This document shows, in pieces, positions 6,401 to 61,800 of a stretch of DNA of 64,000 nucleotides. Positions within the stretch are counted from its first letter, which is position 1, and every line of letters begins with the position of its first letter. This DNA comes from Lingula anatina (lineage: Eukaryota; Animalia; Brachiopoda). The translations under genes were made by a program, and so were the position numbers. Where the stretch lies: the NCBI GenBank assembly GCA_051362555.1, contig CM120648.1:16736587-16800586 (forward strand), given 5' to 3'. The notes under the pieces are model-generated. The model ran no database searches. It was not told the DNA's origin and saw nothing but the letters and a program-made list of their open reading frames with translations.

Positions 6401-6791
6401 TGCTATATCTTACTTCCACCAAGGCTGCTCTACAACAATATAAGAGTATTCTTGCGAGATGAACATATCTGAATCAGCACTACGGTGCCATGTCATCAGA
6501 TACCATGTGCTCACTCTGGTTGGACTTGTGCGGAACAGTGGACACATTTGCCAGAAGCTATTCACCTGCCCATAGTTGCTCCAGTGTGCATATAGGTGCA
6601 AATGTAGAGGCTGACAATGTGCAAGGGCAAAATGCACTGTATATTGCACATACAAGGGAGAATTTAACGTCATAACTATTGCAAAGTTTTATAAAGAGTC
6701 GTAAGGTGATAAAAGCATGGAAATGGCTGGTTACTAACTTTGACCATGCTGCCTTAAGTATCTGCACTGGCAATGTTTTTGATCGGATGTG

Positions 6792-7083
6792 TATGGGCGG
6801 CGGTTTATACAAAAATGCAAAACACGATTAGTCGTCATCGTTATCAGATCAGTCGAAATGAAAACACGATTTGTCGTCGTCGTTATCAGATCAGAAGGCA
6901 AAATACGACTAGTAGTCGTCAAAACGCAACTAGTCATCAAAACGCAACTAGTCATCAAAACGCAACTAGTCATCATCAAAACACAACTAGTCATCAAAAC
7001 GCAACTAGTCATCATCAAAACGCAACTTGTCATCATCAAAACGCAACTAGTCATCAAAACGCGATTTGACGCCAGATGGCGCC
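6792..7083 (+). repeat. Left TIR with a subterminal array of 18-21 bp AAAACGCAACTAGTCATC(ATC) units
   Basis: Inverted match to 26972-27201, with one mismatch in the first ~190 bp. About 8 array units here versus about 5 on the right. Confidence 0.93.
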
Positions 7084-7130
7084 CATTGTACGAAAATCTA
7101 GGCCAAGTCACATGATCCACAGTGATCAAA

Positions 7131-10100
7131 ATGGCGGACGTTATTGAAGCAGCATTATCATTCCTCGCTCGAACTCGAGAGTTATCTCTACGCGTACAAT
7201 CTAATAATGATATTATACTAGACGACGCTTTAATCTACCAGGTAGAACATTTATACAGGTCAATCTTGGATTACACTGCTCTCGATGCTGCGGCATTACC
7301 CCTAGCAGAAGCATCAAGGATACTTAGTGAGTATACCAGCAACAGCACCACCTCAATGACAAGTTCAACCCCAACAACAATCAATAATGATGATTATAAC
7401 AGTAGGCATGTCAATAGGCCTAATGCTGGTAGTGATGGTGAGCGTGATGATGATAATGGCGGAATGAAGAAAGGAAGAAGAAGATACGAAATATCCAGGG
7501 AGCAGTTAATTTTCTTCATAGGTAGGCTTTCCTCCTCTTTCTTTTGATTGTTGAGAAGATGTTTTTAAAATAAGACAAGGCCTGTTGTTTGTGAAATTGC
7601 GTTGTGTAGGCTCTTTGTTATTTTGAATTTTTGTCAAATCTCTTGTTGGTAACTTGTGAGGTTCTTTTTTTCGGGTCGCTTTTTCTGAGGAATTACATCC
7701 ATGCTTTTTTTGTATCATTTCAGAACATGACTTTACAGTAAAAGAAATTGCAAATATGGTTGATGTATCCCCAGGAACTATCAACAACAGAAGGAAAGAA
7801 TTTGGAATTTCTATTCGTCAGAAATATAGCACTATTAGTGATGAATTATTAGATAGTAAAATCCTGTTCTTCCTCCAGCAGTTTCCCAATTCAGGTAAAG
7901 TAATATCAAAATGCTTATTTTACTGGTTATGAAAAAATATTTAATGAAACATTTGTTTTTGTGTGTCATACAAATATTCTTTGACTTCTATCACCAATCC
8001 TTGACCTAACTGCATGGGCCTTCCTTGAATTATGTACTTACCACACACAATGTGGGGGACCCCTCTAATGATTTGTGGGGGTCCCCTTAAATTATTTCTG
8101 GTGTCCCCCTTTAATGAGGATTCCAATTTCCCACATTACTTTTAAACTCCTTTTAAAATAAAATAGCCCATGATACCGAGTATTACGGGCTCTCATCTTT
8201 GGATAATTCGATCATTAAGACTGCTATGGAGATTCCCAGTTTCTCTGTCTTAAACTCTGCACACGGAAAATAATGAAACAAATCCATGTAACGTCAACAA
8301 GTTATTATTGCACTACACTTTAAGTTACATGATACATCTACAAACCCTCTCTCAATCTCTATTCTTCTCCTCCCTCACTTAGCTCAACATTGAGATTTTA
8401 TGTACAACTTTATCAGTTAAAATGTCAATGATACTATAGATAATAAACTGATTGGTTAATTTAAAACAAGCTCATCACCTCAAGATGGGCACACCCAAGT
8501 GCTCCCTATAATCCAACAATTTAAATTACTGATATTATTTAAAGCCTATTATACATGTTAAATTCTTGTCTGAATTTTGCCCTTAATTGACCTTAGTACA
8601 AAGGCTACAAGCATTTAACTTTCTTTGATTGAATTACTACTACACCATGTATGAAAATTAATAAAATATTAAATTCAAAGTATTTTCCACTGCTGTGGTT
8701 CCTGACAACAGACACCAACCATATCAACTTGTAAAAAATTGGTTTCTTCTAACGTTATTCGTGGTAGGTCTGTCCTTTAGTATGAATTCATATCATTGAA
8801 AATTGACTTGCTAACGAATTTTAGCCACTGATTACTTCTTTAATCCTCCTATCTGAACAACTGAATATTCTATGAAACTGAATTTCTTCTAGGTTATAAA
8901 AGTGTCCAAGGGTTTTTGACATCTCAAAAAATTTTGGTACAACGCAACAGAATACGAGAGTCAATGTGGCGTGTGGATCCTCATGGACGACAAATCAACT
9001 CATTGAGAAGGAGAATCAAGCGCAGGGTCTATTCTGTTCCATCCCCCTTAGCCCTCTGGCATATTGATGGAAATCATAAATTGATAAGGTGAGATTACTA
9101 CTCTCTGAATTCTCATTTTAATGTCATTAAAAACAAAATAACAAAGTGGGGGTATTTCAGGGACCCTCTCTGCCATCCACCCACAACAAAATTCTTAAAT
9201 CATTCCATTAATTTTTCTTCTAATTTCAAATTTGCTATTGGCATTGAAACACAATTATTTAGGATCTTCTTTAATTTTCAGATGGAGATTGGTTATACAT
9301 GGAGGTATAGATGGCTATAGCCGAGTGATAGTCTACCTCCACTGCAGTACTGATAACAAATCTGGGACAGTTTTGAATCTTTTCAAAGAGGCAGTTTTTA
9401 TATGGGGACTGCCCTCAAGGGTCAGAGCAGATCAAGGAGTAGAAAATAGGGATGTGGCCTATTATATGCTTAGTCATGAGAATCGTGGACCTGGCAGAGG
9501 CAGTTTTATCACTGGCCGTTCAGTCCATAATGCCAGGATAGAACGGTTATGGCGTGATGTTTATGAAGCTGTTTTATCACAATACAGGGATATATTCATG
9601 TTTCTGGAAGAGGAGGGAATGTTAGATATGGATGATGAATTGTGTATCTCTGCCTTGCATTACACGTATGTCCCACGGATAAATAAGTCACTGGACAGCT
9701 TTGGGCAGATGTGGAATCAACACAAAATGAGAACAGCCAGGAATAAAACGCCACTGCAGATGTTTCTCACTGGTATGAATGAACAATGCCGAGATAATAC
9801 ACAAGTCGGTCAGGAATATATTCAGGTAACAAAATTTAAAAAAAAATTCCAAATACTATTAATGAGCAAACATCTTTACCAAAAAGCATGGATGATTTGA
9901 TGTTATAGTCGACTCATCCTTATCTCATAATTCCACCTCAAAATATTATACACTCAAGAGATTTACACCTTAATTTGTAACCAGTACTTGTTATAAGAAG
10001 TAAATTTTCATATCAGTGCTTTAAGTTTAGTCCTACAGTGCTTATTTATTAAATGTATAACCTTTTTAATTCAGATACCTACAGATAGGGGGGGTCCTTA

Positions 10101-12524
10101 GATAACCTTTTTCCCCAAAACCATGTCAAAACCACCTAAAAAGATGCTTATACATCTTAAAAACAAACTACAAAAAACCAAATTAGTCTATCTCTATTAT
10201 CAGAGCTGCTACTTGGGTTTTAGTATTTTGGAGAAAAATCGCTAAAAATACTTAAACTCTGTATTTTGTAAAATATGATGGTTTTTCATATCAATGTTTA
10301 TGCTTACATTTTAACACAAATTTCATTGTGACTAACAATTCTGACATAAAGACGGACTAAATACATATGAAAACTTAACTGAATGTTCTAACACCTACAT
10401 AATGATCCATAATAAGTTCAAAAAGACAGGAATTCAGTAAGAATTCAATTCACTAAAAATTCAATGCTTTTTGGAACCTTAAGTCAGTTAGCGTTATGGT
10501 GGATATTTAGTTCTTTTCCCAACAACTTTTTCAAGTTCATTCCAAACTGTTCTGGAGTTAACATCCTTCTCTTCCCTCCATCAGTACTGAATATCCTGAA
10601 GACAGGACTACATTTTGGCAGTGATAAGGATGTGTCTCTAGCATATGAGACTCCCCCCTATGAAATTTTGACTCATCCTACAGAACTTTATCAATCATAT
10701 TTTATTTGAGTATATGACTTTTATCTTGTAGTATGCATAATAGGGGATGCATTGGCACTTTTTGCTAGTTTGCAGGTGAAAGTTTTCATGAGAATAGATG
10801 AAAATTAAAAATGTGTACTCTACCAAACAATGAATCCCCTATGGAAAAGCTGTTTATTTGAAATTTTCCCAATTTTTTTACCAACAAACTTTCAAATACT
10901 AACAAAATATATGTCACAATGCAAACTATGTGGAAAATAATGGTATGGTGAATAAATATGAAATGGGACTTTTTCTTCATGTGAATCCAAATACCATAGA
11001 AAATGGAGATTTTTCAAGATTTTTTTTTCATTTTTTTCACCCAATATTTTACAATCAAACTTTCTAATATTTCCAATATATTCTGAATAAAGTATACTTA
11101 AAGGAAAGATGATGAAATGATCATCAAATACCAAATAAATAGCTTTTTCATAGGGGAATCTTTGGGTTGTAGAGGTCATACATGTATACTCAAATAAGAT
11201 TTATAAAGGTTTGTAGGGGGGAGTCAGATATTCATTATGAAATTTTGACTGGGGAAGTCAGATTTTCATGTTACACTGGTGTTCAGTAGAAACAGTTTTC
11301 CTTAATCTGCTAGTTTCTTTCAGCTCAGTCCCTCGGGCCACAGCCTCTAGTTTTGGTTTCTTCCTCAATCTTTGATCGGTGTCACCTCACTGCCGTTCCA
11401 TTTGAAGGTTGTGGACAGGATCTCATCTATGTTTTCACACTGATCAAACACAGGATATTTAACTGGATATTCAATAATTCCATAGTATTTTCTGCATTGC
11501 ATAGCCAGACCCTTTGCCATTTCTGGCAATATCTTCTTTGTCAAAGCTATGCACTCATTCAGATGTGCACTAGCACATCGTTTCACACTCTCAACTACAT
11601 GTCTTCAGTAGGCCATAGTTATCTTTCACTTCCTGGAATAATTCTTGGTTGAAACAGGAAAACTCAGGAGCATCTAGCTGAAAGAAATTCTCATTTACCT
11701 CATTTCTACTCAGCTCTAGATGTAATGATTGAAACTTTTCTTTCAGTTTGCTGTGTGTTGCACCCCTGGATATTGTTATGGCATGAAACTAATTGAATGC
11801 TACAACAGCAGCAACTATTCTGATATATCCCAATGCCAGAACACCTCTTACAAGACAAGCTAGATGCCATCATTGTCTAGTTAGTTATTCAGTAATACAG
11901 TATAGATTCCCTCAAAAGATAATGAAATCATGAGAATTCTAAAAGGAAAAATGCCATCAAAACTATTAATGATGAATTACCATGTTAATGTAATTGATAT
12001 AAGGTGTCAATGCCACCATGATTTTGAATATTTCGCTACCTTTTTACACAAATTCCCTAAAAACCAAATAAGAAACCCATCTATTTGGTTTTGGTGAGTC
12101 TGAAATAACTTGCCAGGCCTATATAACTTTCATTCATGTTGTAGGAAGACAGTCCCGAAACAGTAGAAAATCGTGCTAAAATGCTAAAAATCGCGTAATC
12201 ATAAAATGCAAGTAGCAGCTGTGTTAACAATGATCTTTCAAAAAGAACATTTGAAATATTGTTTTTAGGTGTGTAAGGAACTTTTTAGCTGGTTTTGACA
12301 TATTTTTGGAATTATGGACCCCCCCTACTACAGATTTTGGAGTTGATCCAGATGCACCAGTTCCTAGTGAAGTTGAAGAAGATGGTATTGTGGTACCTGA
12401 CAATTTGTTTCCAGTAGGTTATGTGGACATTGACCCATTGAATACAGAAGATAGATGGGGGATTGATACATACAGACAGGTCCTCACAGAACTACAGAGA
12501 CAACATGAGACTAATGGAAGTTAA
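7131..12524 (+). CDS. IS3/integrase-like DD(36)E transposase, 5 exons, ~500 aa; last exon interrupted by an insertion
   Basis: GT-AG exons 7131-7521, 7724-7894, 8893-9088, 9282-9825 and 10075-10085+12335-12524 join in frame (1503 nt). [29 protein letters not shown]; catalytic motifs [19 protein letters not shown] and [11 protein letters not shown]. Confidence 0.88.
10086..12327. mobile_element. TIR element (TAGGGGGGGTCC ends, possibly hAT-like) inserted into transposase exon 5
   Basis: TIR tagggggggtcc / ggacccccccta with degenerate extension. Duplication CTACAGA at 10079-10085 and 12328-12334. Removing it restores the frame [11 protein letters not shown] decayed ORF lies on the minus strand at ~11350-11890. 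Confidence 0.8.
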
Positions 12525-12848
12525 AACTGTAATGTCTTTTTATTAACTGATGAAGAATAAAATAGTTACAGATAACACATAAAGTGTAAAAACGGGTTGA
12601 CCTATTGTCTTCAAACTTTAAGGGGTGATCAATGTGACTAATTCAGCTCAAGTTTGAGAAAAAAGCCCGATTAGATTATTAATACCTTTGTTGTCATGCA
12701 TTTTTTTAATGTTCACTTTTTACATATTGGCAATTTTAAGAATTCCATGTGTCTGAACACCTTTGCTGATCACATATTCCATTTATCTGTGTTACCTGCA
12801 GTGCATAATTAAAATTTGCTTGTGATTATGGTGGTATAAGCACTATGT

Positions 12849-13805
12849 ACAAAGCAGCAAAGCTGTCAAATGTACAGATAAAATACAGAACTTAACAATG
12901 CACAAAATAGGCTACTGTCAATTCTGATGCAAAAGTACATTACATTTATCTGTAAATTCAACATCAAATTTTAATTATGCTCAACAGGTAATACCTATGT
13001 AAGTAAAATGTGGGGTTCGAGTAAAATATGGGGGTTCAAGTTAATACTTTGAAAATGCCAGAATGAGAAAAATGAAAATTTCATAAATAAATTGCATAAA
13101 TTCAATAATAAATGATAACCCAATTGAGTTGGCTTCCTAATTTGAATTGCATGCCAATCCTAAAAAATCATACTTTTAAGTTAAAAATAATAAAAAGTAA
13201 CACAGTTTTCTTTTCATAATGTTTGTAGTAGCAGTGCAAAAAGATTTCATCAATTTTGATGTAACATTACATTATAAATTACAGAATAATTATCACCAAT
13301 TTTTGATTATTGACTATAAATAGCATGAACATGTAGAAAATTTGATTACCATCCGGCTTCATGTCCATGAGAGCTCCGAGTCAAAACGATAACGATAGAA
13401 ATATGCCAAAACAATAAAAATGAATATTTCACTAAAATGTATAACTTCCAGAAAAAGAAGCCAATTAGACCAGTTTTTCGAATTCGTCTGCAAACCTTTT
13501 TGAAAGTTTGACAGTTATAAGTAACAGGGTTTTCCCATAATGATCATCATGGCAGCAGCACCCAATATTGTGTTTTCTTCTATTTTGATACAATATTACA
13601 TAATGCTTAACAGCAAAATGACCATCAATTTTTAATAATAAAATATTAGTATCAATGGATAATAAGAAAATGTGACTAGCAAAGGTTTTCAGGCCCATGG
13701 AGCTTCAAAGTTACACCTTGAAAATGCCAAAATGTAAACATAACAGCACTGTTCTGAAATGGTTTTTTCCCATTTTTAACAATTTTTTAACAAAAAACAA
13801 TTTAC
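12849..13805. mobile_element. Helentron-type repeat family A, partial copy
   Basis: Starts acaaagcagcaaagctgtcaaatgtacag, shared with the copies at 44572, 45433 and 60080. Confidence 0.6.
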
Positions 13806-14828
13806 AACTAGAGGACCAGAGAGGCGATACCACCTCCGGATATTGTACCACCAGATGTAGTAAGCGCATACATATGGACCCCCCCCCCCTCCAAAAAGGG
13901 GCACCATCACCAGTCTTGTGCTTGACAAGCTCTATAAAATGCAATCAACAAGAGTTCTCAAAATATGCAATATATATATATATATATAACTAAAAATGGT
14001 ACAATCAAGCAGATTTTTGAATTGACTTGCATTTTTCTACCATTGATCACTCCTGTGATTCTCTAGACAAAAGGCCTATTGGTTTTTCTTGAAATGTGTT
14101 GTCAGTGGTGCATATATGCTGACAAAAGAGAAAACCTGGGGGCAACAATGGGCACATCTCTGCAAGTTTAGAAGATATGGAGCAAGAAAATATGCAAAGC
14201 TCAGTTCATGGTGAAAAAGTAGGTCAAAGGTCAATACCAATATCATAGTATATGAATTTCTATTCAAGTTCAATAGTAACTATGGACCTATCTCTGCCAG
14301 TTTTGGAGATAAAAGGGACTAAATGTTATAATTTTGGAGTTACAATAATGTGCCATAAATTTACTACAGAAAAAATTAATTAAAATAAAGAAAAGGTCAT
14401 TTTGGTCAAAATTCTTGAAATGGGAGGTGCTCTGTAGTTCCAGATGTTCAAATTTGATGAAATAATGTCATTTTTGACCACAAGTTGTCTGCTTTACCAA
14501 TCTTTATGTATTATTTTTCCAGGGTTCAAAATTTATTATCCATTACCGTACTGAACATTTTGCTTTCACCACCAATATGTACTTTTTGATACAGCGTAAC
14601 TTGAAAACCGTATTGAATACAAAAAAAACGGAGACCACAATCAGTGTTGGGCTCTACATGCTCTACAAAATTCAAGAAAGAATGGGTCTCTAGCATTACC
14701 GGTTCCCGAATTAGAGACAATTTTCAGATTCGGTATCTTATGGACACTTCTCCCGTGAAAATGCACCAATTGACCTCAAATTCACGGAGATGAAATATGA
14801 CCCCAAGGGTAACACTTTCCAATAATAT
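13806..14828. mobile_element. Helentron-type repeat family B, truncated copy ending ~20 bp from the HECT stop codon
   Basis: Starts aactagaggaccagagaggcgat and is collinear with 55273-57990 once the RTEX insertion there is removed. Confidence 0.6.
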
Positions 14829-14847
14829 TTTGATTCGTTCAAAAATC

Positions 14848-17800
14848 CTAGTTCATGCCAAAATAGGCCGAACAAAAAGCCATGTCAAACTTTCTGTATA
14901 GATAGGTAGCTTCATATGGCATTTTGACCCTTGGTAATATAAGCTTGTTGAGACATGTATGGGCAGTTGGAAAATCCCCTGGACAATCTCCAAACGTAAT
15001 TTCTGGCTTTAGATGGAATCCAGTTGCAGGTATATGTGAAGAACCTGTTGTAAATTTCAAGATGCTCTCCATTGTAATGTACACTTCGTCCACTTTTCTT
15101 GGTGCACCTAGAAGATAAATTAAAAAATACCAAAAAGTGTGCTTTATGTAATCTCCTTAATGGCCTATCAATTAGGCAAATTACTTTATAAATCAGAAAT
15201 TAGCTAAGTGATACCCAAGGGATATTAACAGACTGACATTCTCAAAGGTCTTTCAGGCCCATAAGTCACATCTTAAGAAAAGCACAAAACAATAATGCAC
15301 AAAATAGGAGACTACCAATTCTGATGCAATAATACATTGTTTTACTGCACAGTCAACATGAAATTTTAATTATGCACAACAGGTAACAACGACGAAAGTA
15401 AAAGCATAAGGCTTCAGGCCCATCAGAGTTCAAGTTTATACTAAGAAAGTGCTAGAATGAGAAAAATGAAAATTTCACACAAAATTGCATAAATTCAATA
15501 ATAAATGATAACCCAATTGAGTTGCCTTCCTAATTTGAACTGCATGCCAATCCTAAAAATCATACTTGTAAGTTAAAAATAATAATAAGTAACACATTTT
15601 TCTTTTCATAATGTTTGCAGTAGCAATGCAAAAATATTGTTGTCAATTTTGATGTAACATTACATAATAAATTATAGAACAATTATCACCAATTTTTGAT
15701 TATTGACAATAAATAGCACGGACATGTAGAAAATTTGATTACCATTCAGCTACATGTCCATGGGAGCTCCAAGTCCCACAGTGAATATGCCAAAAGGCTA
15801 ATGAATATTTCACTAAAATGTATAACTTCCAGAAAAAGAAGCCAATTAGACTGCTTTTCCAACTCATTCTGCATTTTAGTCCTGTTTTTCCTTTTTAAAG
15901 GTTTGACAGTCATAACGCGGTTTTCCAATTATGGTCATCATGGCAGCAGTACCAAAAATGTGTTTTCTTCTATTTTGATGCAACATTACATAATGCTTAA
16001 CAGCATAATGACCATCAATTTTTAATAATAGAATAGGGGAGAGCGGGGTTGGTTGGAACAGTTTTCACCTTTTTTGCGATATCTCAGCAGTCAAAGCTTT
16101 GGGGACAAAAATAAAAAATCTGATAGGGGAAAATTATATGCCGCACTCATCTATGAAATAAAACATCAAGTAGGTCTTTTTATTTTAGAGTAATAAATGC
16201 TCAAAGTTGCCTCCTAAAACGTTCCATCTCACCCCACCTGCGGGGTAAGTTGGAACAGGCAGTGGGGTGAGTTGGAACAAGAGGGCGAGTTGGAACGCTT
16301 GCATATAAATTCAAAGTATAATTCATTTTAAGAGTAGGTTTATCTATATTAATTTCCCAACAAGTGCGTGTTACTTTGTATTCGTATCTACATAGTTTGT
16401 TAGCATTTTTTACGTTTACAATTCCCTTTTAAATAGTCTTTTCGATGTATAAACCATATCCAGGTACACGTCATTTCATAATGATAACAAAAGTGGTGTA
16501 GTTTAAGAGAAAAGAAATTGAACTCACATAACTCAACCTATCAACAACAGTATGTTAGACCTACAAATGAAAACTGTATCTCTTTCAACTCAACAACTCA
16601 GAATCAAAATCGCAGTTCTGACATACTCAGTATGTACACTTGGTCAACCTTAGTACAGTCTTCATGTGACCACTTTAGACAAACAATGCATTTAACCCAT
16701 TTCTCTTTTGGTCGGCTGTTAATGAACGGCTCCCCACAAACCAGAGATGGCCACTCTTCTTCTGACTCAGAATCGTTGGTCATCTTTAATTTCCTTTTTC
16801 TTGATTTTCTCTATCGACTAGAAATCTTTAACTGTTTTTTATTTTTGTTGCGCTTGTCCTTTTTAATTTTGTTGGGCTTGGCCTTTTCTTTTTCGAGTAG
16901 CTCATTTTCAGGTGTGTCAGTTAGTACTGCACTGCATCGTTTTCTTCTTTTAATCTTTGGACTGCGACGGTGAGCCTTTGGAACCAGTCTAATTATTGCT
17001 GGACTTGAGCTGTTTTGGGCTTTTCTTAAGTGCGCTTTAGACCCCATTTCCAGAGATTAGATCGATCTACTTTAGATCGACCTAACTCCCTGGGGGTTCA
17101 CGCTAAATAGCTGTCAGCCGAGCGGACACCAAAGTTAATTACCCCCTTACAGCTTGTAGTAGGCGGGACGGACATTTAAGCCGGATTATCTGACAGTAAT
17201 CTAGTGACAGTAATCTAGATCGATCTAAAAGCCTTAGTGTGCTGTAGCACCTCTTCCGGTGAGGGCAACTGAGATTTCAACTGAATCTATGCCTAAGTTA
17301 CGAGGTGAATGTTTGTCTTTTCTGGCGGATTTTGTGCCCTCGTTCACTAAACATTAACAGCAACCCCCAACCCATTACACAAAGCATCTAAAACAATATC
17401 GGCAGAATTGGTGTTGTATAGTTTATCCATAACATAGGCTCTCAGCTAGAATATTTTCATTTTGCCGCGAAAAGCAGAGTAATAATCGACATTTCCTTCC
17501 ACATCTTAAAGCAATTTATCGCAAAAAGCAACAGTGGGCATGCAGACAATTTTCGACCAAACAGCTAGCAACTGCATGTAACAAGCAGTGACCATCCCCC
17601 CTTGTATCTTCTACACGCATGTACATTCCGGCATCTTGGAGATGTTCTATCAGCTAGATTTCGTCTCCAGTTGGAGTTGTACTGGGTTACTACGTTACTA
17701 CTCTCTTCAAAGTTGAAATTAAAACATTTAGAGAGGTTTAAAAAAATGAAAAACACCGTGCGGGGTGGGTTGGAACACCCCTGACAGTGTTCCAACTGGC

Positions 17801-20800
17801 CCCATGTCAAATGTTCCGACCAGCCCCCATGACGTCATGGCCTACTTATGACACTGTATTTCTTGAACACGTGGGAAGTGATTAAAAAAAACAACAGCTT
17901 TTTGAACATCAAGGTGGTCCTAAACGCTTTGCACAATTTCAGTGATATAATCCTTATACTTTAGTTTACAGCACGATGAATGTCAAAAATATGAAAACTT
18001 ACTTCGAGTAGCGAAAATAAGTTTTTTTCGCATAAAACTTTTAATGCATTTTCGAAACTTCCACAAGTTTACCAGATGAATGACCATGCCACGTGACATT
18101 TTTATGCTGAAGGAGCACATGATCGGTCTTGTGATTTAAGAAATAAAGCCAATGTTCCAACTTACCCGCGTTCCAACCCACCCCGCTCTCCCCTATTAGT
18201 AACATGGACATTCAGAAAACGTGACAAGCAAAGGTCTTCAGGATCATGGAACTTCAAAGTAACACCTTGAAAATGCCAATATGTGAAAAATTAAATTTTC
18301 ACAAAAAACTGTTTAACTGCCAGAAAAAATTACCAAACAGACTGCATTGCCTGATGAAGCTGTATTTTAGCCCCATGTTTCTTTCCTGTAAGTTTGAAAA
18401 CATTAAGTGACATGGTTTTTCTTAAATGGTCATCATGGGAGCAGTGTCCAAAATAGGGGTTTCTTCAAATTTTGATGCAATATTACATAATGTTTAACAG
18501 CATAATGGCCATCAATTTTTAATCATAAAATATTTGTATCATGGATATTCAGAAAATGTGACTAGCAAAGGTCTGCAGGCTCATGGAACTTCAAAGTCAC
18601 ATCTTAAAAATGCGAAAATGTAAACTAGACAGCACTGTTCTGAAATGGGTTTATTTCCATTTTTAACATTTTTTAACATAAAACAAAATAAACAGTTTGT
18701 TGCCATTTTTATATAGCCAACTAAGAAAATTGATGAGATGGGAAAATATCAATAGAACAGTGTTAAATGTCCAATTTCCCCCATTCTGAGATTCTGAACA
18801 TAGTGGATGATTGAATCTGACAAACTGCAATGATATGAGTTTATTTCCATATTTGACACTTTATTACACAATACACGATAACAAGTTTACCATCATTTTT
18901 ACATAATCAATTAACAATGTTGTAAAGATGCAGGAAATATCAAACAAACACTTTTACGTATCTTATTACTTAAATAATGAGACTGTTAACATGCGTAAGA
19001 ATTGAATCTGAGGAAATGTGAAAAACAGCATAACTTCTAAAATAAAGGCCCGATTATGCTGATTTTCAAACTCAACCTGGGTTTTGGTTAGTTAGACTAC
19101 TCCTGTGAGTATAATGACAATTGGCCTATCTGTTTTTCTTATATTGTGTTATCAGTGTTGCATATATGTTGCAAAAAAGTGAAAAAACAGCATAACTTCC
19201 CTAAAAATGGCCCGATCATGCTGATTTTTGAACTTGACCTGCGTATTATGAATATTCATCAGTTATCGCTGAGTGCACAGCGACGACGGCAACGAAAGAC
19301 GCAGGTGATGGCTATATGTACAGATACATCTGTGTCTGTACATAAAAAGTGACACGTTAGGCTACAGAGCAACTGATTTGGTTTAACAAGCCTTGAATGT
19401 ATCCGACCACTAGAAAAAGCACTGCTATAAAGTAACATGTATGTACACCTAGACTGAATAATTTGCAATTTACCCATAATTTAACTAGAGGGCACATTAT
19501 AATAATTTAAAGAATTCAAAGTTTTATCTTATAATAGCCCTGTTGAGGTGTACATAAAATCAAACTATTACAGATCCTTTATCACTTTCATAATCATGAA
19601 GTTTGCTTAAACTTGTCCATTTGCTTTTATTGGTTGTTTCTCATTTATTGCCACAGGACACTAATGTCTCATATCACCAAGTTTTTTCTATAAATAGACA
19701 GAGGTCAATTTATATGATAATGATTACAGAGGTGACACCACTGGGTGTCATGTACATTCAGTAAGAGGATTTTTGAAACATGTTTATATCTTTCCTTTTC
19801 ACCGTACCTTGAATGAGTTTCAGATAGTCTGTAAAGTGACGAATCACAAGTAATTCACCATCTTTTTTCTCCGTGTCTTCACTATATGTAGTCCTGAATA
19901 CTGACATCATTTTTCCAGCAGTGAATTTAAATTCAGCTCTATGCAACAAGTGTCGAATACATGGCCTTGCGGCAATCAACTGAAATTTTAAAACGATAAA
20001 TTTACCACAAATAAATATCAATGCATGTATATAAATTGTGGGAGACAGTGGTCTGTATCAAAGGCATCAAACTCCTCAGTATGAAAATATGGCAAAGCTT
20101 ATGATGATGTAAACTGCAATTTGGGACAGAAAGGTATAATTTGAATAACAGCCTTAGAATTATAATCACCTGTATTATCCCACACATTTTTAACCCAACA
20201 AGGACCTCCTTAAGTGAGTCATCTGAACAGTCTTCTGTTGCTAGATTAAACACCACGTCTTCACTGAGGAAATCTGGTGATGGTCCTCCCTGTAGAATGG
20301 AAAGTCCTAAAAGAAAAATTAATGAGATCAGGTTTCATGTTTTAATGAATAAGGCTTAGGATTATTAAATAATTGTGAGCAGTTTGGACTCTTTTTCTCA
20401 AATACCACTTGTCAATTATGAAATAATTTTATGCCACTGACTTACCTATAAGAATACCTACTGCACGAAAGATTGATGGTTGTACAACAGTAGAATCTCT
20501 AATTGGTTCACCATTATTAAACAATTTCTTTCCAACTTCATTGAGAAGCAATTCGAAGAATTCCCTCCTCGGTCCCCCAAAATCTAAAGCCTCTTCACCA
20601 AGGAAAGTGACATTGAGTGGCAGCCGAGTTGGATAACCAGGCAGGCAGAAGTCTCTCAAACCATCATCAAAGATATGATTTCGCCTGATAAATAAATCTT
20701 GAGTATCTCCTTCAACAGTATCTGATTCTGAAGCAAGATCTAGGGGTCTACCTATAATGAAATGCTCCTTGAACACTGCCAAAATTGACTTTGTGTCATC

Positions 20801-23800
20801 AGTATCAGGTCTGAAATTATACATGAGGGCAATGTGATAGATTTTTACAGAATAAATGACTGAGACTTTTCTGTCTCGGTGATTGCATATGTTGATAGCT
20901 TAAAGCTAACCATGATAAATAGCAGACATATACATAACAAGAAGAATTTACTGCATAAAACAAAAAACAACCTATCACTGATGATTACTGATGCAGACAC
21001 AAGTGCTTCATTTGAATTTTATAGGCACATGCTACCAGAAAATAAATAAATGCTTATGTTTTACTTACAGGAGAGGCTTGATGTTGGAAGTTATCTCATC
21101 TGCTATTGCAATTGTATTTCTAATATCTTCATGCTGCTCAAAGTCTATTTCTTCTGAGTTAATATTTCTACCAACATCATGTATTTCCTACAATGTAATG
21201 ATATTGATAAGATATTACCAGGAAACTTGATACAATATCAAAACCACATACCAGAAGAAGAGCAGGGTCTTGAAATTTATCTTACAACTAAAAGATTCTT
21301 TAAATTCCTAAATTACATTCTGTAGTAATAATTGATGTTACACATATTTTTATGGAATGAAAAATTAAACCAAATTTCTTTTCGAATTTAGTCGAAATTG
21401 ATGAATTTACAAATTACATGAAGAAACCAGACATTGGCAACAATAAAAGCATAAAAATTGTTTCTTTGCTTTTCACTGAAAACATTATAACATATTAAAT
21501 ATATAGAGATTGTTTTTTTTTTCACTCATTTTCTAATGTAGAATAAGTTCACAGAAGCCATCTTACCAAATCTGGTAGACTATCACTAACAGCATCAGAT
21601 ACATCATTTCCTACCTGAAATTAATTTGAAGACAACAAACTGTCATTCATGTTACAATTTTATAAGTCATGGTAAAAATTATATATTGAATGCTTAGCCC
21701 AAATATGTCTGCATGGTGAAAAATTATATAATTAATGCTTACCCCAAATATGTCTGGTTCATCATCTTCATCAGAACTAACAGTGACAGGTGTCTCCTTA
21801 ACAAAGAGAAAGGAAAAAAGGTGTACATAGATGACATATATTATACAGGTATATCAGGAATAATAATAATAATAATAATTGAAATGGCCTACAAAACCAC
21901 AACAATAGGACTCAATGCTTACTTGGAGATGACTCAAGACGATCTGTTGAAACCGGTTCTCCAGCATTAGAGAAGCAAGAAACTCTACTCTGTGTCATGG
22001 GAGGCTCAGAAGTTCATACAAGAATTAAACTACTATGAAAGACCAGGAACAAGCCACAAACTTTGCAAAGAGAACCAAACAAGCAGCAAAAGAATGTGGT
22101 CTGAAGAAAATGACAGAAAAATGGGAAGAAAAAACGATGCATGGACAATGCCCCAACAGAATCAAGAAAGCCGATGTGGAACAAGAACAGACACATCAGT
22201 GGCTACAAAGTGCTGGCTTGAAGGCTGAGACTGAAGGAATGATGATCGCTGCACAAGATCAGAGTCTAGCAACACGATCCTACCATCACCGCATCATTAA
22301 CGATGAAACAGACCATAACTGTCGCATCTGTAATTAATTCAAGGAGACTATCGATCATATAGTCTCAGGCTGCCTGTCCCTTGCAAGATCAGAATACATC
22401 CAACGACACGACAAGGCGGCAAGCGATACCCACTGTAAAATATTCAAGCATCACCAACTCCCAGCAGCAGAAAAGTGGTATGATCATCAACCACAGACAG
22501 TGACAGAGAATAAAAACATCACAGTACTCTGGGACATGCCTGTGAACACAGACAGAGAAATTCTTGCAAATAGGCCAGACATCATCATTAAAAACAAACA
22601 AGAAAAGTCATGCATCATGATTGACATGACAGTCCCATCTGAACGAAACGTATCCATCAAGGAAGAAGAGAAGCTCTCTAAATATAAAGATCTGGAAACT
22701 GAGGTGTCTAGAATGTGGGGTATGAAGACGACCACAGTACCTGTTGTAGTTGGAGCACTGGGCCTTATCAAGAAAGGACTGGATAGGCAGGTCCAGCAAA
22801 TACCAGGAAGCCCAAATGTCCGAGAGCTGCAGAAAATAGTCTTGCTTGGTAGTGCGCATATCATCTCATGAACACTAAAATCGCCTCAGAGTCATGGTAT
22901 GACTCCGGCATCTTAGTAATTGCCAAAGGTTACAGGAATCATCACATAATAATAATATTTGTTAAGATAACAACCAAAAGGTTGAGGATAGCATAAAATG
23001 TACAAAATCCATGTTACAATATTTATGTAAGATATAAATTATGCAATAAGATAATGTATCCACATATAAATAAAAATTAAAATAAGAAGCACAGACATCT
23101 AAAAGTTTGGATAAGAGTAACTGAATAAAGTGAAGTACAATTTAATAAAAACCAAAATGAGTTCAGGTTTCTCATTTTTTTCATATTGAATTGTCAGAAT
23201 GATTTTCACAGATTTTTACCTCTTTTCTTGGACACCTTGCAGCATGTGATCTTATTGTACCAGCTGGAAACATCTTGAAACAATGCAGACATTTTATTTC
23301 TTGTTTATTTTCCATCCCCAAATTGTCAACCTTCAGAGGTAGGCTTTTCTGCATGGGTCTAACATAGATTCTTCCAGACGTGGTAAGGCCTGCTAAAAAT
23401 GAGACATCACAGGACCCAGTACACTTAACACTCAGAGATCCCCTACTCCCTCCAACACTGGTGAGAATATCAAACCCACCACAATCTTCTAATAAAGGAT
23501 ATGCTCTGAAAGAGGAAAGAGACAGAAATTATGAGACAATAAATAATAATTGCTTAAAATCACTGAGATTGTTCTATCTTCAAAGATGTACATTGGCTCT
23601 CTAGTTTATCATGGTCCAATATAACCTTTTTAGGTTTTTCTATGTTAATTTGAACTGACTTCAAGGCCCTGTATTGTTTGAGTGAACTACTTTCAGCTAC
23701 AGCAGCTATCACCTTTTACATTGGCAGAAGTAAATATTGATTCAAGACTTTTTAGAAAAAAATTTAGGCCTATTTCATTACCTATATATTACTTCTGATA

Positions 23801-26800
23801 CATGGTCAGATAGACCCGACTTCCTGAATTCTAACTTTTTGACCCCCAAACCATTTAATTCTAAAATTCGCCTCTCTTCAGCATCTGGAGCACCCTCTTG
23901 ATCCTTGTCAGCCAAGGCACAGATATTCTTTTTAATATACTTCTCATGGCTTTGAGCTGAAAGATTAAGAAACATGCTAATCTCTAATGTAAGACCCTAT
24001 TTCCAGAGATTAGATCAATCTACTTTAGATCGACCAAACTCCCTGGGGGTTCACGCTAAATAGCTGTCAGCCGGTCGGACACGAAAGTTAATTACCCCCT
24101 TTCAGCTTGTAGTAGGTGAGACGGACATTTAAGCCGGATTATCTAACAGTAATCTGGTGAGACTCCCCACGGGGATAGATCTATCTAAAAGCTCTGGGAA
24201 TACAGCCTAAAAGAAGGTAATTATGTCTAGTAATTTTTTGTATAAGTCATTTTATTAGCAAAATCAAGTTAGCTGAAAAAATAATTAAAAGAAAAAATTT
24301 CTAGGTCTCAAAAAGAAATATTTCAATAGAAGTGTGTATAATTATTTGAGAAGAATCTAAAGAACCATCTCCTCAAAATGTTGGTGAAGAATTTCATGTA
24401 GGCTTACTCTAGGGTACTACATACCTAGGCCTACATACATAGTGTTTTTCTATAAAGTTTTGCCAGACAACTACATGTAGGTAATAGCTGAACTAATAAT
24501 AGATTATATTTTACTTACATGCACTCTTAGGTAGTTTTTTGGAATGACGTGCGTAGGGGTGAAACCTCGGAAATGTTCTGTCTATAGCCTATATTAAAAA
24601 TGAAAAGACCACATTATAACACTGAAGACTGATTGATAAAAGTGAGAGCAGCATTTACTTTTTATCCTCATTAGGCCCCTAGTCGAAATCGAAACTGTTT
24701 TTGAAAACTCAATACTATATTTACCTAATAAATAAAGACAAAGCAAACATGAAAAGGGAGGCAATAAAATTAATGTCAAGTGGCTGGCGTGGGCCATGGC
24801 TAAGGGTAGGGCTAAACAAAATAATAATAATGAGCCTAAACTTAAAATAAACAGGTAAATAAAAAGCAAAGGCCCTTAATTATTATGCAAATTATAGCCA
24901 AAATTTAAAATGCCAAATCAGCAACAGCTACTTTATATCATCGTGAATATTAGGCCTATTAATATCATAGATGTTAATAATATACACCATTTATCATCAT
25001 GTCTGATTATTATTATTATTATATATTCAGGGCTCGACATTAGCGCCTGTCCAGGACAGGTAAAAATTCAGTTCGGACAGGTGAAGTTGCAGGGTTGGCT
25101 GTCCAACGGACAGGTCATGATTTATGACAAATTTGGAGCAAAAAGTCTTTTTTAAATTCATTCTTACATGCATACTGACGTCTTTTTGTCTCTTCCTATA
25201 CGGTGCTGAAAATAAGTGACCTACTTTTGGAACAAAACACATGAAGTCGGAAAACGAAGTCTGAGCAAACTTACCGCCAAATTATAAAAGTGAACACCCT
25301 CCAGAACTTCACAAGACAAAATTTATTCACATAACAGGCTCACTACTGAATATTTATTTGGTTATAAATCCACGTGCTCCAGAGATAAATACCGCTCCAA
25401 AAACGGAAACTACACAAGTACTGTGCTGGGTACAACAGCTAGATTGAACTGGATAAACCAGATATATCTAGTTTGTTGTCAAGGCAACATACTACCTGTC
25501 AATCAAATACATTGTGTGCTATCTACTCACTATAGAATGTGAAGTCTTTGGGACTGAAGATCTTGTTCAAATATTGTTTATTTGCCAAAATATAACCTCA
25601 AGTTTTGTATGATGTTTTTTATTTAATGACTTTAACATCACCTATACCATTTACAGTTAAAAATTAGTGCTGGAATATGATAAATTCACACTGCTGTCAT
25701 ATACCAGTGTGATATTGATGTAAGGAGAAAATGAGAAACAACAAATATGAGAATTTAAATAAAAAGGGGAACTTTTTTATACTGATTTTATTTAACTCGT
25801 ATATTTAAAAAACACATGATAACCCCTAAAAAGTTGAATTGTTAACATAAATGTAAGTTAAGTATTTTAAAATGAATATTCTTTCATTTTTCATTGAACT
25901 TTATTCAAATATTATAAATTTTAAATATTTTAATAAAATTGATCTAACAGTACCCCCCCCCCCCCCCTACCTGCTGCTCAGGGTATTTTTTAAGCTTTGG
26001 TTAAACTTCATGTGAATTTGTTATCAAATTGAAGATTTACAATTAGTAGACCCTGTACCCAAAATCCTAGGAGAAGCCCTGCTTGAAACTATGTTAAATC
26101 AGACTTATATGCAAGATTAAGTCTTCAGGAGTTCACAAGTATGAAATAACAGCTTTTTATCTGAAAATAAATCCACTTTAAGGTGCATTTTCCAGCTCAT
26201 ATGATTGAATGTCTTGGTAATAAATGCATTGAATGTATGACTACACATATTTATTTACAAAGTTCAGTGGTATGAATAGAAAATAAATTATTGGTTTTGT
26301 TGGACAGGTTGGATTGAAATCGGACAGGTAAAATTTATGAGCGCCTGTCCGAAGTTAGTGTCTAACCCTACATGACCATGTCTATGTACACTGATACTGC
26401 CTTAGCTATTAGTCCTATATATGCCTATATCTATAACCTAAAATATATAGGCCTAATAATATAATAATTAATTAATCTAATCTAATTATTAGGGTCGATG
26501 ATAATAAAAACAGAAGGCCAAACCCAGGCCTAGTGGGCTACTTACCATAGCACTACTTGTAGGAGTTGGCCTGTTATCAGACACAGCAGTAGATGTAAAG
26601 GGTCGCCGTTGGCATTGTTGGTCAGCTGGCAGTGGCAGGGTCGAGGCGGGGGTGTTCTCCGAACAAGATCGAGGAGGGGGTGTCCTCCGAGTCTGGCTCT
26701 GCGTCTGAAAAATGCGTCGGTGCTCTGCTAAAATCACCCCTGGCGTCGATTGTTGAGCACCGTTGGTGTTGTTATCGTCGGCTCTGACAAAGTCACCCAA

Positions 26801-26884
26801 TAATTCTGAAGTCTCCGCAAAAAGGTGTAATAATCTTCTGGAGATTTCTTCTCTACTTTGCGCACTCTGACTGTTGTTAGCCAT
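14848..26884 (-). CDS. Transposon-borne G2E3-like HECT E3 ubiquitin ligase with UBZ-like CCHC finger, 11 exons, ~674 aa
   Basis: GT-AG exons 26884-26546, 24588-24519, 23956-23782, 23505-23220, 21796-21743, 21614-21567, 21187-21069, 20810-20446, 20306-20170, 19979-19808 and 15107-14848 join in frame without stops (2025 nt). Motifs: CLHC-x11-H-x3-C, VTFLGEEALDFGGPRREFF, LKFTTGS, catalytic FPTAHTC, and a -4 Phe in the terminal FGMN. Confidence 0.88.
16036..18193 (-). mobile_element. pogo/Tc1-mariner-type deletion derivative with a C-terminal PHD-finger remnant
   Basis: TIR ggggagagcggggttggttggaac / gttccaacccaccccgctctcccc flanked by TA. Other family A copies show the uninterrupted aaatattagt site. 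Minus-strand remnant SAVLTDTPENE...KWVKCIVCLKWSHEDC. Confidence 0.75.
17040..17235 (+). mobile_element. ~215-bp Harbinger-like MITE, copy inside the pogo element
   Basis: Near-identical to 23993-24207 and 36174-36387; the right end is degraded. Confidence 0.7.
21881..22950 (+). pseudogene. 5'-truncated R4/Dong-like non-LTR retrotransposon (CCHC knuckle plus restriction-like endonuclease) in HECT intron 4
   Basis: CRICN*FKETIDHIVSGC, then RPDIIIKNK...IDMTVP...EEEKLSKYKDL and VPVVVGALG. In-frame stops at ~21968 and ~22335 plus a frameshift. Flanked on both sides by (TAA)n. Confidence 0.82.
23993..24207 (+). mobile_element. ~215-bp Harbinger-like MITE in HECT intron 2
   Basis: Imperfect TIR gaccctatttccagag / ctctgggaatacagcc with TAA on both sides. 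Confidence 0.75.
25028..26370. mobile_element. hAT-like non-autonomous element in HECT intron 1
   Basis: Ends cagggctcgacatta / tagtgtctaacccta, with subterminal ggacaggt repeats at both ends. No clear TSD. Confidence 0.55.
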
Positions 26885-26971
26885 TAAATCTGATAAACGC
26901 AAGCACTGCACTGCACTACACTCAGAATTTCGCGGGTATTGACTGTGACGTCACCGCAAGATTGACATGAG

Positions 26972-27201
26972 CGCCATCTGGCGTCAAATCGCGTTTTGAT
27001 GACAAGTTGCGTTTTGATGATGACTAGTTGCGTTTTGATGACTAGTTGCGTTTTGATGACTAGTTGCGTTTTGACGACTACTAGTCGTATTTTGCCTTCT
27101 GATCTGATAACGACGACGACAAATCGTGTTTTCATTTTGACTGATCTGATAACGATGACGACTAATCGTGTTTTGCATTTTTGTATAAACCGCCGCCCAT
27201 A
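26972..27201 (-). repeat. Right TIR of the IS3EU-like element
   Basis: Reverse complement of 6792-7083 with fewer array units. Confidence 0.93.
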
Positions 27202-28384
27202 GATGTGTGTAAACATCACACAATTGTTTCAACTTACTGGATTAAAAGTATGAACATCTTGCTCGAAAGTGTAGTTCTTAGCTAGTATTATAGATTTGCC
27301 TTACTTAATAGACTAACGCAACTTTAAATGCTTGTTGCTAGGGTAATATGCTGCCTAGCAATCGTAGCTAAGGTTAATTTGGGTTTTAATTGCCTTAAAA
27401 TAGTCAAGTGACAGTTCTGATGCCATGAAACATAGTTATTAGCATTTCTAAACAATTTAAACTGGACAAGAAAGGTCTTATTAGCTTGTTACTAAGGAAA
27501 TTCACTTCCATAGCAACGGTTGCTAAGCAACGCTTTGAAATTTTGGGCACTGCCCTTGAAAATGATCAGTATAGACCAAAGAACAATTGTGCCAAGTTTC
27601 ATGCTTTTTCCACATTTTGAGCAATTTGTCCAAAATATAGCACCAGTCATCCAGACTACAAGTACTATTTTTTTGTATTCCAAACCCAAGGTCACTGTTG
27701 TGTATGAATACACTACTTCCTGTGAAAAGTAGTTCCATTTCATGAAAAATGGTCGTCTGCTAGTTTTATTTGCAAACAACAATCCACAAAGTCAGGAAAA
27801 TAAGGTATTATCCAAAGTACTTCAACATTTAATTTATTTGTGTGTGTTAACAACAAACTGGTGATGAAATGTCTTTGAATCTAGAAGTGGTAAGACATCG
27901 AGAAACTTGACAAAGTACATTTGAGAATTTAGGTATATCTAAGCTTTCATGAACAGCTACAAGATGAAGAATATGAAGAACTGGACTGTTCTGTTGTGAG
28001 ACTTGAGTTGTTCTTCACTGACAAATGGACAAGAAGTTCAGGGATTAAACAATGTAAGATGTTTTTCTTGTGACTTAATAAAAATACAAATAAAGCATAC
28101 TATAAATTCCATTAAAAAGAGTTCTTCATCCTTATTCAAAATCCTAATCACTAATGGGTTCATAGAAATTTGTCAGTAACAGTAAAGTATTAACTATAGA
28201 AAATGTCTCCACTCTACATACATTTTTACTAAAGCACAGCTGTGTGCTCACTGAATTTAAATATATGCTTAAAAGTTTTTTTATTGAAATTAAGGCAAAC
28301 ATATTTATGGATAAAAACATTGTAAGACTAATTAACTTTCAAATATTTTACATAATAATCATGTCTATCCACAGTTAATACATG

Positions 28385-29326: not shown

Positions 29327-29765
29327 TCCGACAGTAGATCCTGTAATATTTCTGTCAGTGATTGCTAAACTTTATGTTCACTTCTGATGCTGCAGCTTGG
29401 AGATCACAGTAACATAAACACTTGCTCCATATACCTACAAGTCGGTCAGATCATATCTCTTTCTTTGTCAAATATGTTCAACATTATCCCACAATCTCCG
29501 TCCTGTTACTTCCTGGTTGTTGAAGAAAATGGCGCCTATTTATCACGTACAGCACTGACTCGCTTAGGAGAAAGGCCAGGACAGGACACAGAATGGCGGC
29601 AACGGCATCACAGGCCACGAGAAACTAAACGGCATCACAGAGCAGTGGATAATAGATGACACAGCGAGTTCAGGTGCCAGTAGAATGTCAATTTTAAAAC
29701 AGGTATCTGCAAGGAATAAGGATTGTTCTATAATAATAATAATAATAATGAGAAGAAGAAGAAGA

Positions 29766-55169: not shown

Positions 55170-55407
55170 CTGTAAGAACAAATAATAAAATAAATAAATA
55201 AATATATTGGCATCATTAGTCTTCAGACAACTGGTGGTGACTATGATGATCAACATAAAAACCAACAATTATAACTAGAGGTTCAGAGAGGCGATAATGC
55301 CTCCGAATATTGTACCACCAGCTGGAGTAAGCGTGAGCGTATAGACCCCCACACACACAAAAAAAGGGACACCACCACCAATCTTGTGCTTGACAAGCTG
55401 TAAAGAA

Positions 55408-58884: not shown

Positions 58885-61800
58885 TAGTCTGGATGATTGG
58901 TGCTATATTTTGGCCAAATTGCTCAAAATGTGGAAAAAGCATGAAACTTGGCACAAATGTTCTTTGGTCTATACTGATCATTTTCAAGGGCAGTGCCCAA
59001 AATTTCAAAGCGTTGCTTAGCAACCGTTGCTATGGAAGTGAATTTCCTTAGTAACAAGCTTATTAGACCTTTCTTGTCCAGTTTAAATTGTTTAGAAATG
59101 CTAATAACTATGTTCCAGGGCATCAGAACTGTCACTTGACTATTTTAAGGCAATTACAACCCAAATTTACCTTAGCTACGATTGCTAGGCAGCATATTAC
59201 CCTAGCAACAAGCATTTAAAGTTGCGTTAGTCTATTAAGTAAGGCAAATCTATAATACTAGCTAAGAACTACACTTTTGAGCAAGATGTTCATACTTTTA
59301 ATCCAGTCAGTTGAAACAATTGTGTGATGTTTACACACATCCGATCAAAAACATTGCCATTGCAGATACTTAAGGCAGCATGTTCAAAGTTAGTAACCAG
59401 CCATTTCCATGCTTTTATCACCTTACGAATCTTTATAAAACTTTGCAATAGTTAAGACGTTAATTTCTCCCTTGTATGTGCAATATACAGTGCATTTTGC
59501 CCTTGCACATTGTCAGCCTCTACATTTGCACCTACATGGACACTGGAGCAACTTTGGGCAGGTGAATAGCTTCTGGCAAATGTGTCCACAAGGGTCCACT
59601 GTTCCGCACAAGTCCAACCAGAGTGAGCACATGGTATTTGATGACATGGCACCGTAGTGCTGATTCAGATATGTTTATCTCGCAAGAATACTCTTATATT
59701 GTTGTGGAGCAGCCTTGGTGGAAGTAAGATATGGCATCTAACGGCCTTTGGGTGTGAACAGAAACTTTTGAACTTCAATGATTAACAAAAAGAATTAGAA
59801 TAGAACCATGCAGGTGTACTTAAGTTACTTGGTAGAGAATAGAAACTGACAAAATACAATGTGAAAAATAGTGAAATATTGAACAAAATGAAAAATATCT
59901 TGGAAATCTGGTCTCTGAGAAACCTTTCAATAATAGGAAAGTCAACAGTGGTTTAGTATTTCTCATCTTACGTTGTGCACGTATAAACTCTCCTACCAGC
60001 CCCCCCCCCCTCCCTCAATACTTAAAAATATGCATATCATATGTAACTTTATCAGGAATGGGACAAGATACAAAATAAAACAAGGCAGCAAAGCTGTCAA
60101 ATGTACAGACAAAAATCAGGAAATAACTATGCACAAAATAGGCTACTGTCAATTCTGATGCAAAAGTACATTATGTTAAACTGCAAATTCAACATCAAAT
60201 TTTAATTATGCTCAACAGGTAATACCAATGTAAGTAAAATGTGTAACAAGCATAAGGCTTCAGGTCCATGGCAGTTCAAGTTCACACTTTGAAAATGTAT
60301 AACTTCCAGAAAAAGAAGCCAATTAGACTGCTTTTCCAACTCAGGCTGCATTTTAGTCCTGTATTTCTTTTCTGAACGTTTGGCAATCATCAGTAACATG
60401 GTTTTCCCATAATGGTCATCATGGCAGCAGCACCCAAAATTGTGTTTTCTTCTATTCTGATGCAATATTACAAAGTGGTTAACAGCATAATGACCGTCAA
60501 TTTTTAATAATAAAATATACGTATCATGGATTTTCAGAAAATGTGACTAGCATGGGTCTTCAAGCCCATGGAACTTCAAAGTCACACCTTGAAAATGCCA
60601 ATATGTGAAAAATTAAATTTTCACAAAAAAAAAAAACTGTTTAACTAGCAGAAAGAATTACCAAACAGACTGCATTGCCTACTGAAGCTGTATTTTAGTC
60701 CCATGTTTCTTTCCTGTAAGTTTGAGAACAGTAAGTGACATGATTTTTCTTAAATGGTCATCATGGGAGCAGTGCCCAAAATATTTTTTTTCCAAATTTT
60801 GATGCAATATTACATAATGTTTAACAGCATAATGACCATCAATTTTTAATAATAAAATATTAGTATTATGGATATTCAGAAAATGTGACTAGCAAAGGTC
60901 TTCAGGCCCATGGAACTTCAAAGTCACAACTTGAAAATGCCAAAATGTAAACAAGACAGCACTGTTCTGAAATGTTTTTTTTTTCCATTTTTAACACTTT
61001 TTTAACATAAAACAAAATTAACAGTTTACTGCCATTTTTATATGATCAACTAAGAAAATTGATGAGATGTGAAAAATATCAATAAAACGGTGTCATATGT
61101 CCAATTTCCTCCATTCTGAGTTTCTGAACATAGTGAATGATTGAATCTTACAAACTGCAATGATATTAGTTTATTTCCATTTTTGAAACTTTATTACACA
61201 ATACACGATAACAAGTTTACCATCATTTTTACAAAATCAACTAACAATGTTGTAAAGATGCAGGAAATGTCAAACAAACACTTTTACTTATCTTATTAAT
61301 TAAATAATGAAACTGTTAACATGCCTAAAAATTGAATCTGAGGAAATGTGAAAAAACAGCATAACTTATAAAATAATGGTCCGATTATGCTGATTTTCAA
61401 ACTTAACCTGCGTTTTAGTAAGATTGATTACTCCTGTGAGTTTCATGACAACAGGCCTATGGGTTTTCCTTGAAATGTGTTCACAGTGTTGCATATATGC
61501 TGAAAAGTGAAAAAACAGCATAACTACTAAAATAGTGGCCCGATCATGCCGATTTTCGAACTTGATCTGCGTTTTAGTAAGACTGATTACTCCTGTAAGT
61601 TTCATGACAACAGTCCTATCAGTTTTCCTTGAAATGTGTTAACAGTGTTGCATATATGCTGAAAAGTGAAAAAACAGCATAAATTCTACAATAATGGCCT
61701 GATCATGCTGATTTTCGAACTTGACCTGTGTTTTATGAATATTCATCAGCTCTGTAAATATAAAGCCAAAAAGTAAAACTGTCTTCCACTTATGGTGTTA

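Follow-up and report, generated by a model that had tools for sequence, protein, structure and literature searches.

The gene described here encodes a HECT-type E3 that lacks the E2-binding small subdomain of its N-lobe (hereafter mini-HECT), and an IS3EU transposon carries it as a second gene, convergent with the transposase. It was found in the window, by which we mean the whole 64,000-nucleotide stretch of Lingula anatina DNA that was analyzed, and its features are collected in Table 1. Since the loss is common to about 100 distant relatives from six animal phyla, whose complete copies nearly always keep the catalytic Cys, ubiquitin probably reaches these proteins by a different route.

The 674-aa gene model, whose exon junctions were predicted from the sequence, ends in four HECT exons (20810-20446, 20306-20170, 19979-19808 and 15107-14849) whose in-frame join gives 268 aa from RRNHIF to the stop, close to the ~270 aa originally estimated. 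The Pfam HECT match (E 5e-10) came from the last exon only; the other three, searched individually, matched no family. The motifs VVFNL and LKEVLVG, which flank the deletion, lie together in the second of these exons and, because a single 137-nt exon holds both, a missed exon was ruled out as the source of the gap. The original prediction had placed them about 8 residues apart within one exon; the single exon holds, the spacing is really 9 residues, and the final LI quoted with the second motif belongs to the next exon. With the Gly of QGG and that of GLK taken as its ends, the linker measures 31 residues in the window gene versus 107 in Rsp5 (5hpl) and 108 in WWP1 (6j1y), both counted in profile alignments, and about 75 residues are therefore absent.

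Table 1. Coordinates of the transposon, its two genes and the mini-HECT domains in the window
Feature	Position	Strand	Details
IS3EU/GingerRoot DNA transposon	6792..27201	.	20,410 bp; termini TATGG...CCATA
Target-site duplication GATGTG, left copy	6786..6791	+	
Left TIR	6792..7002	+	211 nt, 99% complementary to right; more repeated units to about 7086
Right TIR	26991..27201	-	
Target-site duplication GATGTG, right copy	27202..27207	+	
Empty site, paralogous host repeat	59320..59375	-	flanks joined by single GATGTG
Transposase exons 1-4	7131..9825	+	7131-7521, 7724-7894, 8893-9088, 9282-9825; 434 aa in frame
Transposase last exon (approximate end)	10075..12485	+	split by nested insertion; read-through stops after 8 codons
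Nested element within last transposase exon	10086..12327	.	2,242 bp; inverted ends; 7-bp duplication CTACAGA
Mini-HECT E3 gene	14849..26884	-	11 predicted exons; intact 674-aa frame; AG/GT borders throughout
Predicted mini-HECT exons	26884-26546, 24588-24519, 23956-23782, 23505-23220, 21796-21743, 21614-21567, 21187-21069, 20810-20446, 20306-20170, 19979-19808, 15107-14849	-	
Putative ubiquitin-fold (beta-grasp) domain, exons 3-4, approximate borders	23330..23945	-	homology; fold of homologue L055
C-x2-C-x11-H-x3-C zinc finger (C2HC)	23232..23291	-	sequence; Pfam zf_C2HC_14 below cut-off for first row
HECT exon, N-lobe large subdomain, first part	20446..20810	-	D-x-GGPRRE loop
HECT exon carrying the deletion	20306-20170	-	137 nt; AG/GT borders; product LSILQGGPSPDFLSEDVVFNLATEDCSDDSLKEVLVGLKMCGIIQ
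9-residue remnant ATEDCSDDS	20215..20241	-	site of ~75 lost small-subdomain residues; profile alignments
HECT exon, N-lobe end, hinge region and first C-lobe helix	19808..19979	-	family SEEGSN motif altered
HECT C-lobe exon	14849..15107	-	Pfam HECT E 5e-10; HTC motif; Cys640 codon 14953-14955; Phe at -4 (FGMN-stop)

The missing residues were located by comparing profiles of short and long forms with solved HECT domains. A profile built from 63 short homologues aligned with chain positions 9-128 of E6AP (1c4z_A) and resumed at 289; we take the E6AP small subdomain to start at residue 622, which corresponds to chain position 128 of 1c4z. The profile from 12 long relatives aligned with 1c4z_A across 8-357 and with the entire middle of Rsp5, WWP1 and AREL1, and the interval in 13 long, G2E3-like relatives is 71-106 aa. 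On the basis of these alignments, the roughly 75 absent residues match the N-lobe's E2-binding small subdomain, in agreement with the absence originally predicted. As set out in excerpts of PMC3077247, this subdomain holds the E2 site (helices 6-8, strands 5-6), and its hairpin contributes to the ubiquitin exosite.

A compact, two-lobed HECT fold is predicted for the family. The scallop homologue P0001, 36% identical to the window HECT over 310 columns, served as a stand-in, and its AlphaFold model (pLDDT 93.7) passes from helix 141-147 straight into helix 152-164 with no strands between. Its best structural match was the HUWE1 HECT 6xz1_A (Z 22.3, rmsd 3.0, 276 aligned of 384). The superposition rows are ranges only, and the gap is placed by the profile alignments; both predicted folds, HECT and ubiquitin-fold, are those of homologues rather than of the spliced window protein.

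To place the deletion among relatives, a representative protein search was used, which gave 1,040 proteins at E <= 0.001, with the best 150 of the 1,040 taken forward. In all, 163 proteins were gathered, 117 of which cover both linker landmarks; the 46 without both were left out. Linker lengths were bimodal, with 104 of 117 short (21-35 aa, most of them 30-33 aa), none intermediate and 13 long (71-106 aa), and because the search query was itself a short form, the 104:13 ratio is not a frequency. Occurrence of the same gap in 104 of 117 scorable homologues excludes chance. Whether the deletion is common to homologues or is decay private to this copy had been posed as a check on the original prediction, and the answer is that it is shared across six animal phyla, the named short forms belonging to bivalves, a limpet, Lingula, Clavelina, a sea cucumber, a sea urchin, a crinoid, Owenia and Paramuricea.

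Short and long forms fell on opposite sides of one branch (support 100/100, found in all 200 bootstrap trees counted) in a tree of 60 short and 13 long rows from which the linker interior had been removed, which had no outside root and in which long forms are thinly sampled. Given that the small subdomain is present in solved HECTs and in the long relatives alike, a single loss is the simplest reading, and it would have occurred in the ancestor of the transposon clade. A viral origin was considered and rejected: one weak locus (L081) was seen in viral contigs, and BFVD returned only distant giant-virus HECTs at 10-14% identity.

The catalytic residues have been retained in the family. The catalytic Cys is kept in 58 of the 59 short forms that reach the C-terminus and, as originally claimed, in the window gene (Cys640). 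Phe or Tyr occupies position -4 in 53 of these 59 sequences, and the Asp of the N-lobe loop is found in all 90 rows having a residue there. Both the -4 aromatic residue and the N-lobe D-x-GG loop are tied to the ligation step. Of eight measurable comparisons between related loci (Nei-Gojobori), five gave dN/dS values of 0.16, 0.23, 0.25, 0.30 and 0.36, two pairs involving the stop-bearing locus L020 gave 0.40 and 0.85, and one pair gave 0.53 over 98 codons; two other pairs were saturated. As judged from these substitution ratios, the data show purifying selection on related copies. The window copy itself agrees with 38 of 48 family-conserved columns (median 44; lower in 5 of 59) and has lost the family motif SEEGSN, and it may be a member of a poorly sampled subfamily, or drifting.

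The window copy is barely transcribed. Four RNA runs were aligned at 90% likeness over 7100-26950, with 6-26% of each run read, and reads from intronic repeats overwhelmed this alignment; the HECT exons had a depth below 1 in all four runs. Run X6 reached depths of 0.74 and 0.59 over 20340-21663 with the mate strand expected for the E3 gene, a signal of few read pairs that possibly comes from another copy. Reads in the transposase bins were of the opposite strand to the E3 gene. None of the RNA joints listed for 7100-26950 was a HECT splice joint.

IS3EU/GingerRoot elements are defined in parts of PMC10045372 and PMC12730594 by TAYGG..CCRTA termini, TIRs longer than 30 bp and a 6-bp target-site duplication. 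By its termini, duplication and transposase, the window element fits this group, with the transposase likened by eye and not by a tree. The transposase matched Pfam rva_4 (E 9e-71), carries the integrase-type DDE residues D246, D303 and E340, and by eye closely resembles Repbase IS3EU-1_CVi_1p and IS3EU-1_SK1p as given in supplementary material of PMC10045372. Because its last exon is split by the 2,242-bp insertion, the window copy is probably no longer autonomous; the transposase is not intact in this copy, which bears on autonomy and not on IS3EU membership.

Other insertions and genes were observed in and around the element. The nested element within the last transposase exon contains broken minus-strand frames at 11340-11876, and three fragments of it gave no useful Pfam match. 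A second nested element of 2.2 kb with 28-nt inverted ends (16032-18197) lies in the last HECT intron; it contains a stretch rich in K/R together with a weak match to PHD (E 0.0013), which resemble the disrupted tail of a different transposase. HECT intron 4 holds a plus-strand fragment (21980-22900) that resembles the terminal part of an ORF from a non-LTR retrotransposon, with no Pfam match. Just beyond the right TIR is a single-exon ORF of 328 aa (28388-29371) encoding an NHL-repeat beta-propeller (Pfam NHL, E 2e-19), which together with a RING/B-box-like fragment at 39326-39739 is perhaps a TRIM-NHL gene. A death-fold domain of CARD-like type (CARD_2, E 2e-4, below cut-off) closes a series of minus-strand exons at 53088-55268. 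Two non-LTR reverse transcriptase ORFs (285-2642 and 55653-57071; RVT_1, E 3e-32 and 3e-24) and tandem arrays at 35216-36196 and 36871-37366, with periods near 70 and 85 bases, were also found in the window.

The pairing of a mini-HECT with a transposase recurs elsewhere. A metagenome search confirmed 271 stretches, the best 80 of which were used as loci (81 with L081), and a transposase match was found in 16 of the 81, convergent every time. When only loci whose sequence extends 1.5 kb or more downstream of the HECT are considered, 15 of 19 carry the transposase. These 19 group into 12 sequence clusters, of which 9 have a transposase match, and in 14 of the 15 transposase-bearing loci the linker could be read and was short. 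Locus L047 is a complete element of 5,956 bp with TIRs and a CTTTAG duplication. In L042, convergent ORF pieces past the HECT (1558-3550) look like an IS3EU-type transposase of more distant kinship, to which the query from the window gave no match.

Upstream of the HECT, exons 3-4 encode a putative ubiquitin-fold domain. The predicted fold of its L055 homologue (pLDDT 94.9) matched mostly ubiquitin-like domains, the best being the TBK1 ULD at Z 7.5 (rmsd 2.2-2.5, 75-81 aligned), a score under the tool's specificity level and a shared fold that shows no function; it also matched Rad60 SLD2 in its complex with the E2 Ubc9 (Z 6.2). The beta-grasp profile matches 27 of 31 long-enough short forms, a count that is partly circular because most of these matches helped build the profile, and one of three long forms (P0002). 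The ubiquitin-fold domain is thus not confined to the short forms. Next to it comes a C2HC finger in 14 of 31 short forms and in none of three long forms, and Pfam zf_C2HC_14 was matched in 12 of 50 rows; we take the spacing of the window finger to resemble that of UBZ4. Exons 1, 3 and 4 of the window gene gave neither a PHD nor a RING match in Pfam, and an Atlas search with the N-terminal domain returned unnamed clusters only. Within the short-HECT subfamily of P0028, P0031 and P0042, a SAM domain precedes the ubiquitin-fold domain. The start of the E3 (26546-26884) has an amphipathic helix and an EHRRIF-like motif, both seemingly recurrent in homologues; the start of the transposase (7131-7521) is also helical, and the two might make contact.

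If the mini-HECT is active with its canonical dock absent, E2~ubiquitin must reach the Cys otherwise, or, in the words of the original prediction, the enzyme must be charged differently. We tentatively favor the reading that the mini-HECT is active and that something outside the HECT domain, probably the protein's own N-terminal ubiquitin-fold domain, tethers E2~ubiquitin to it. This domain would hold E2~ubiquitin near the mobile C-lobe, with the C2HC finger, in some subfamilies, perhaps helping by gripping ubiquitin. The Cys would then accept ubiquitin as a thioester and pass it on, the target being conceivably the transposase that the element encodes or a silencing factor of the host. As the deletion also removes that half of the ubiquitin exosite which the small subdomain supplies, the products might be single ubiquitins or short chains, made with low processivity. 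Recruitment of an E2 from outside the HECT has a precedent in SMAD7, which bridges UbcH7 to SMURF according to excerpts of PMC6457168.

Although unlikely in our estimate, charging in trans comes next, with a host adaptor, a RING/PHD protein or a full-length host HECT bringing E2~ubiquitin or relaying ubiquitin to an active mini-HECT. The retained catalytic residues are consistent with this, as is the adaptor-bridged recruitment described for SMURF and SMAD7 in the same portions of PMC6457168. The loci themselves argue against a partner encoded by the element: in the gaps of the window and in 12 related loci, no third, E2-recruiting or RING-like ORF was recognized by eye between the two genes, and L005 leaves only ~370 bp between the two stop codons. 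A host protein would then be needed as the partner in six phyla.

Direct but weak docking of the E2 on the C-lobe and the remnant helix-loop-helix, which would make an extra tether needless, we consider rather improbable. The remnant is tightly held in length and is an ordered helix-turn-helix in the P0001 model, and in NEDD4L-UbcH5B~ubiquitin the C-lobe contacts both ubiquitin and the E2. Its residues are variable, however, no P0001 column from 139 to 159 reaching 75%, and the structural elements assigned to E2 binding fall in the deleted part.

We give similarly little credence to a non-ligase in which the Cys and C-lobe are kept as a ubiquitin trap, as a hydrolase, or as a decoy protecting the transposase by binding to ubiquitylated proteins. 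The loss of the canonical E2 site and the presence of a ubiquitin-like domain, often with a C2HC finger, would suit such a role, but a pure decoy needs neither the -4 aromatic residue nor the D-x-GG loop, both of which are kept alongside the Cys. The decoy that the original prediction offered as its alternative is therefore disfavored by the near-invariant Cys, the -4 aromatic residue and the low dN/dS in five of eight measurable pairs. Finally, that the deletion is the private decay of a dead transposon passenger is very improbable, and for the deletion itself is refuted by the same gap in 104 homologues of at least six phyla, the purifying selection in related copies and the 674-aa frame open across 11 exons, while decay of the window copy is possible in view of its divergence, scant transcription and interrupted last transposase exon.

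Beyond the tethered, active mini-HECT that we favor lies a broader proposal that we regard as doubtful. Animal IS3EU transposons may have spread a dock-less HECT class that is charged via a built-in ubiquitin-fold domain, recruiting E2 in the manner of the ubiquitin-fold domain of an E1, or directly from E1 or another E3. This would be a new ubiquitin-transfer route, controlling the transposase or disarming host silencing.

The family is in effect a natural deletion experiment, having long been without the dock yet keeping the Cys in all but one of the complete members. It poses the question of how a HECT is charged without a dock, and its catalytic core of ~300 aa is simple to express. Many HECT genes annotated as "uncharacterized" in invertebrates are likely transposon genes, and the family is a concrete candidate for transposon control of, or defense against, the host ubiquitin system. 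HECT ligases and IS3EU transposons are both known kinds, and the deletion of the small subdomain in an IS3EU HECT family is apparently undescribed. Within the open literature we found no report of a HECT family without the small subdomain or of a HECT in IS3EU, and Repbase entries may note the second ORF. E2 binding by the HECT domain is treated as standard in portions of PMC13015453 and of bioRxiv 10.64898/2026.02.10.700855, and the N-lobe E2 site as a defining part of HECT ligases in portions of PMC13015453 and PMC6457168.

Several known systems invite comparison. With IS3EU/GingerRoot elements, the window element shares the TAYGG..CCRTA termini, the 6-bp duplication, a DDE transposase and an oppositely oriented second gene. 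Published cargo of this group comprises alpha-kinase, TET/JBP (in fungi) and gene fragments (in Selaginella) according to excerpts of PMC10045372, PMC12730594 and PMC6839031, and the term HECT is absent from the main text of these three papers. With canonical HECTs (E6AP 1c4z, NEDD4/NEDD4L, Rsp5, WWP1 and HUWE1 6xz1), the mini-HECT has in common the two-lobed fold, the D-x-GG loop, FTTG, the T-C motif and the -4 Phe. Its nearest long relatives are the "G2/M phase-specific E3 ligase-like" HECTs of fish, crinoid and soft coral (P0157, P0137, P0163 and P0016), with which it shares GGPRRE and GGP, and the long form P0002 has a ubiquitin-fold domain, as does the window gene family; these relatives differ in their linker of 71-106 aa, for which the small subdomain is the aligned counterpart. 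PHD/RING domains belong to true G2E3 in the account given in sections of PMC6457168, and a host G2E3 orthologue was ruled out by the architecture (a ubiquitin-fold domain and one C2HC finger) and the location inside a transposon. The closest functional parallel to the tethering that we favor is SMURF2 with SMAD7, where, according to those sections of PMC6457168, the E2 is likewise brought from outside the HECT domain; SMURF2, however, keeps the small subdomain and only binds the E2 weakly, whereas in the window gene family this subdomain has been deleted.
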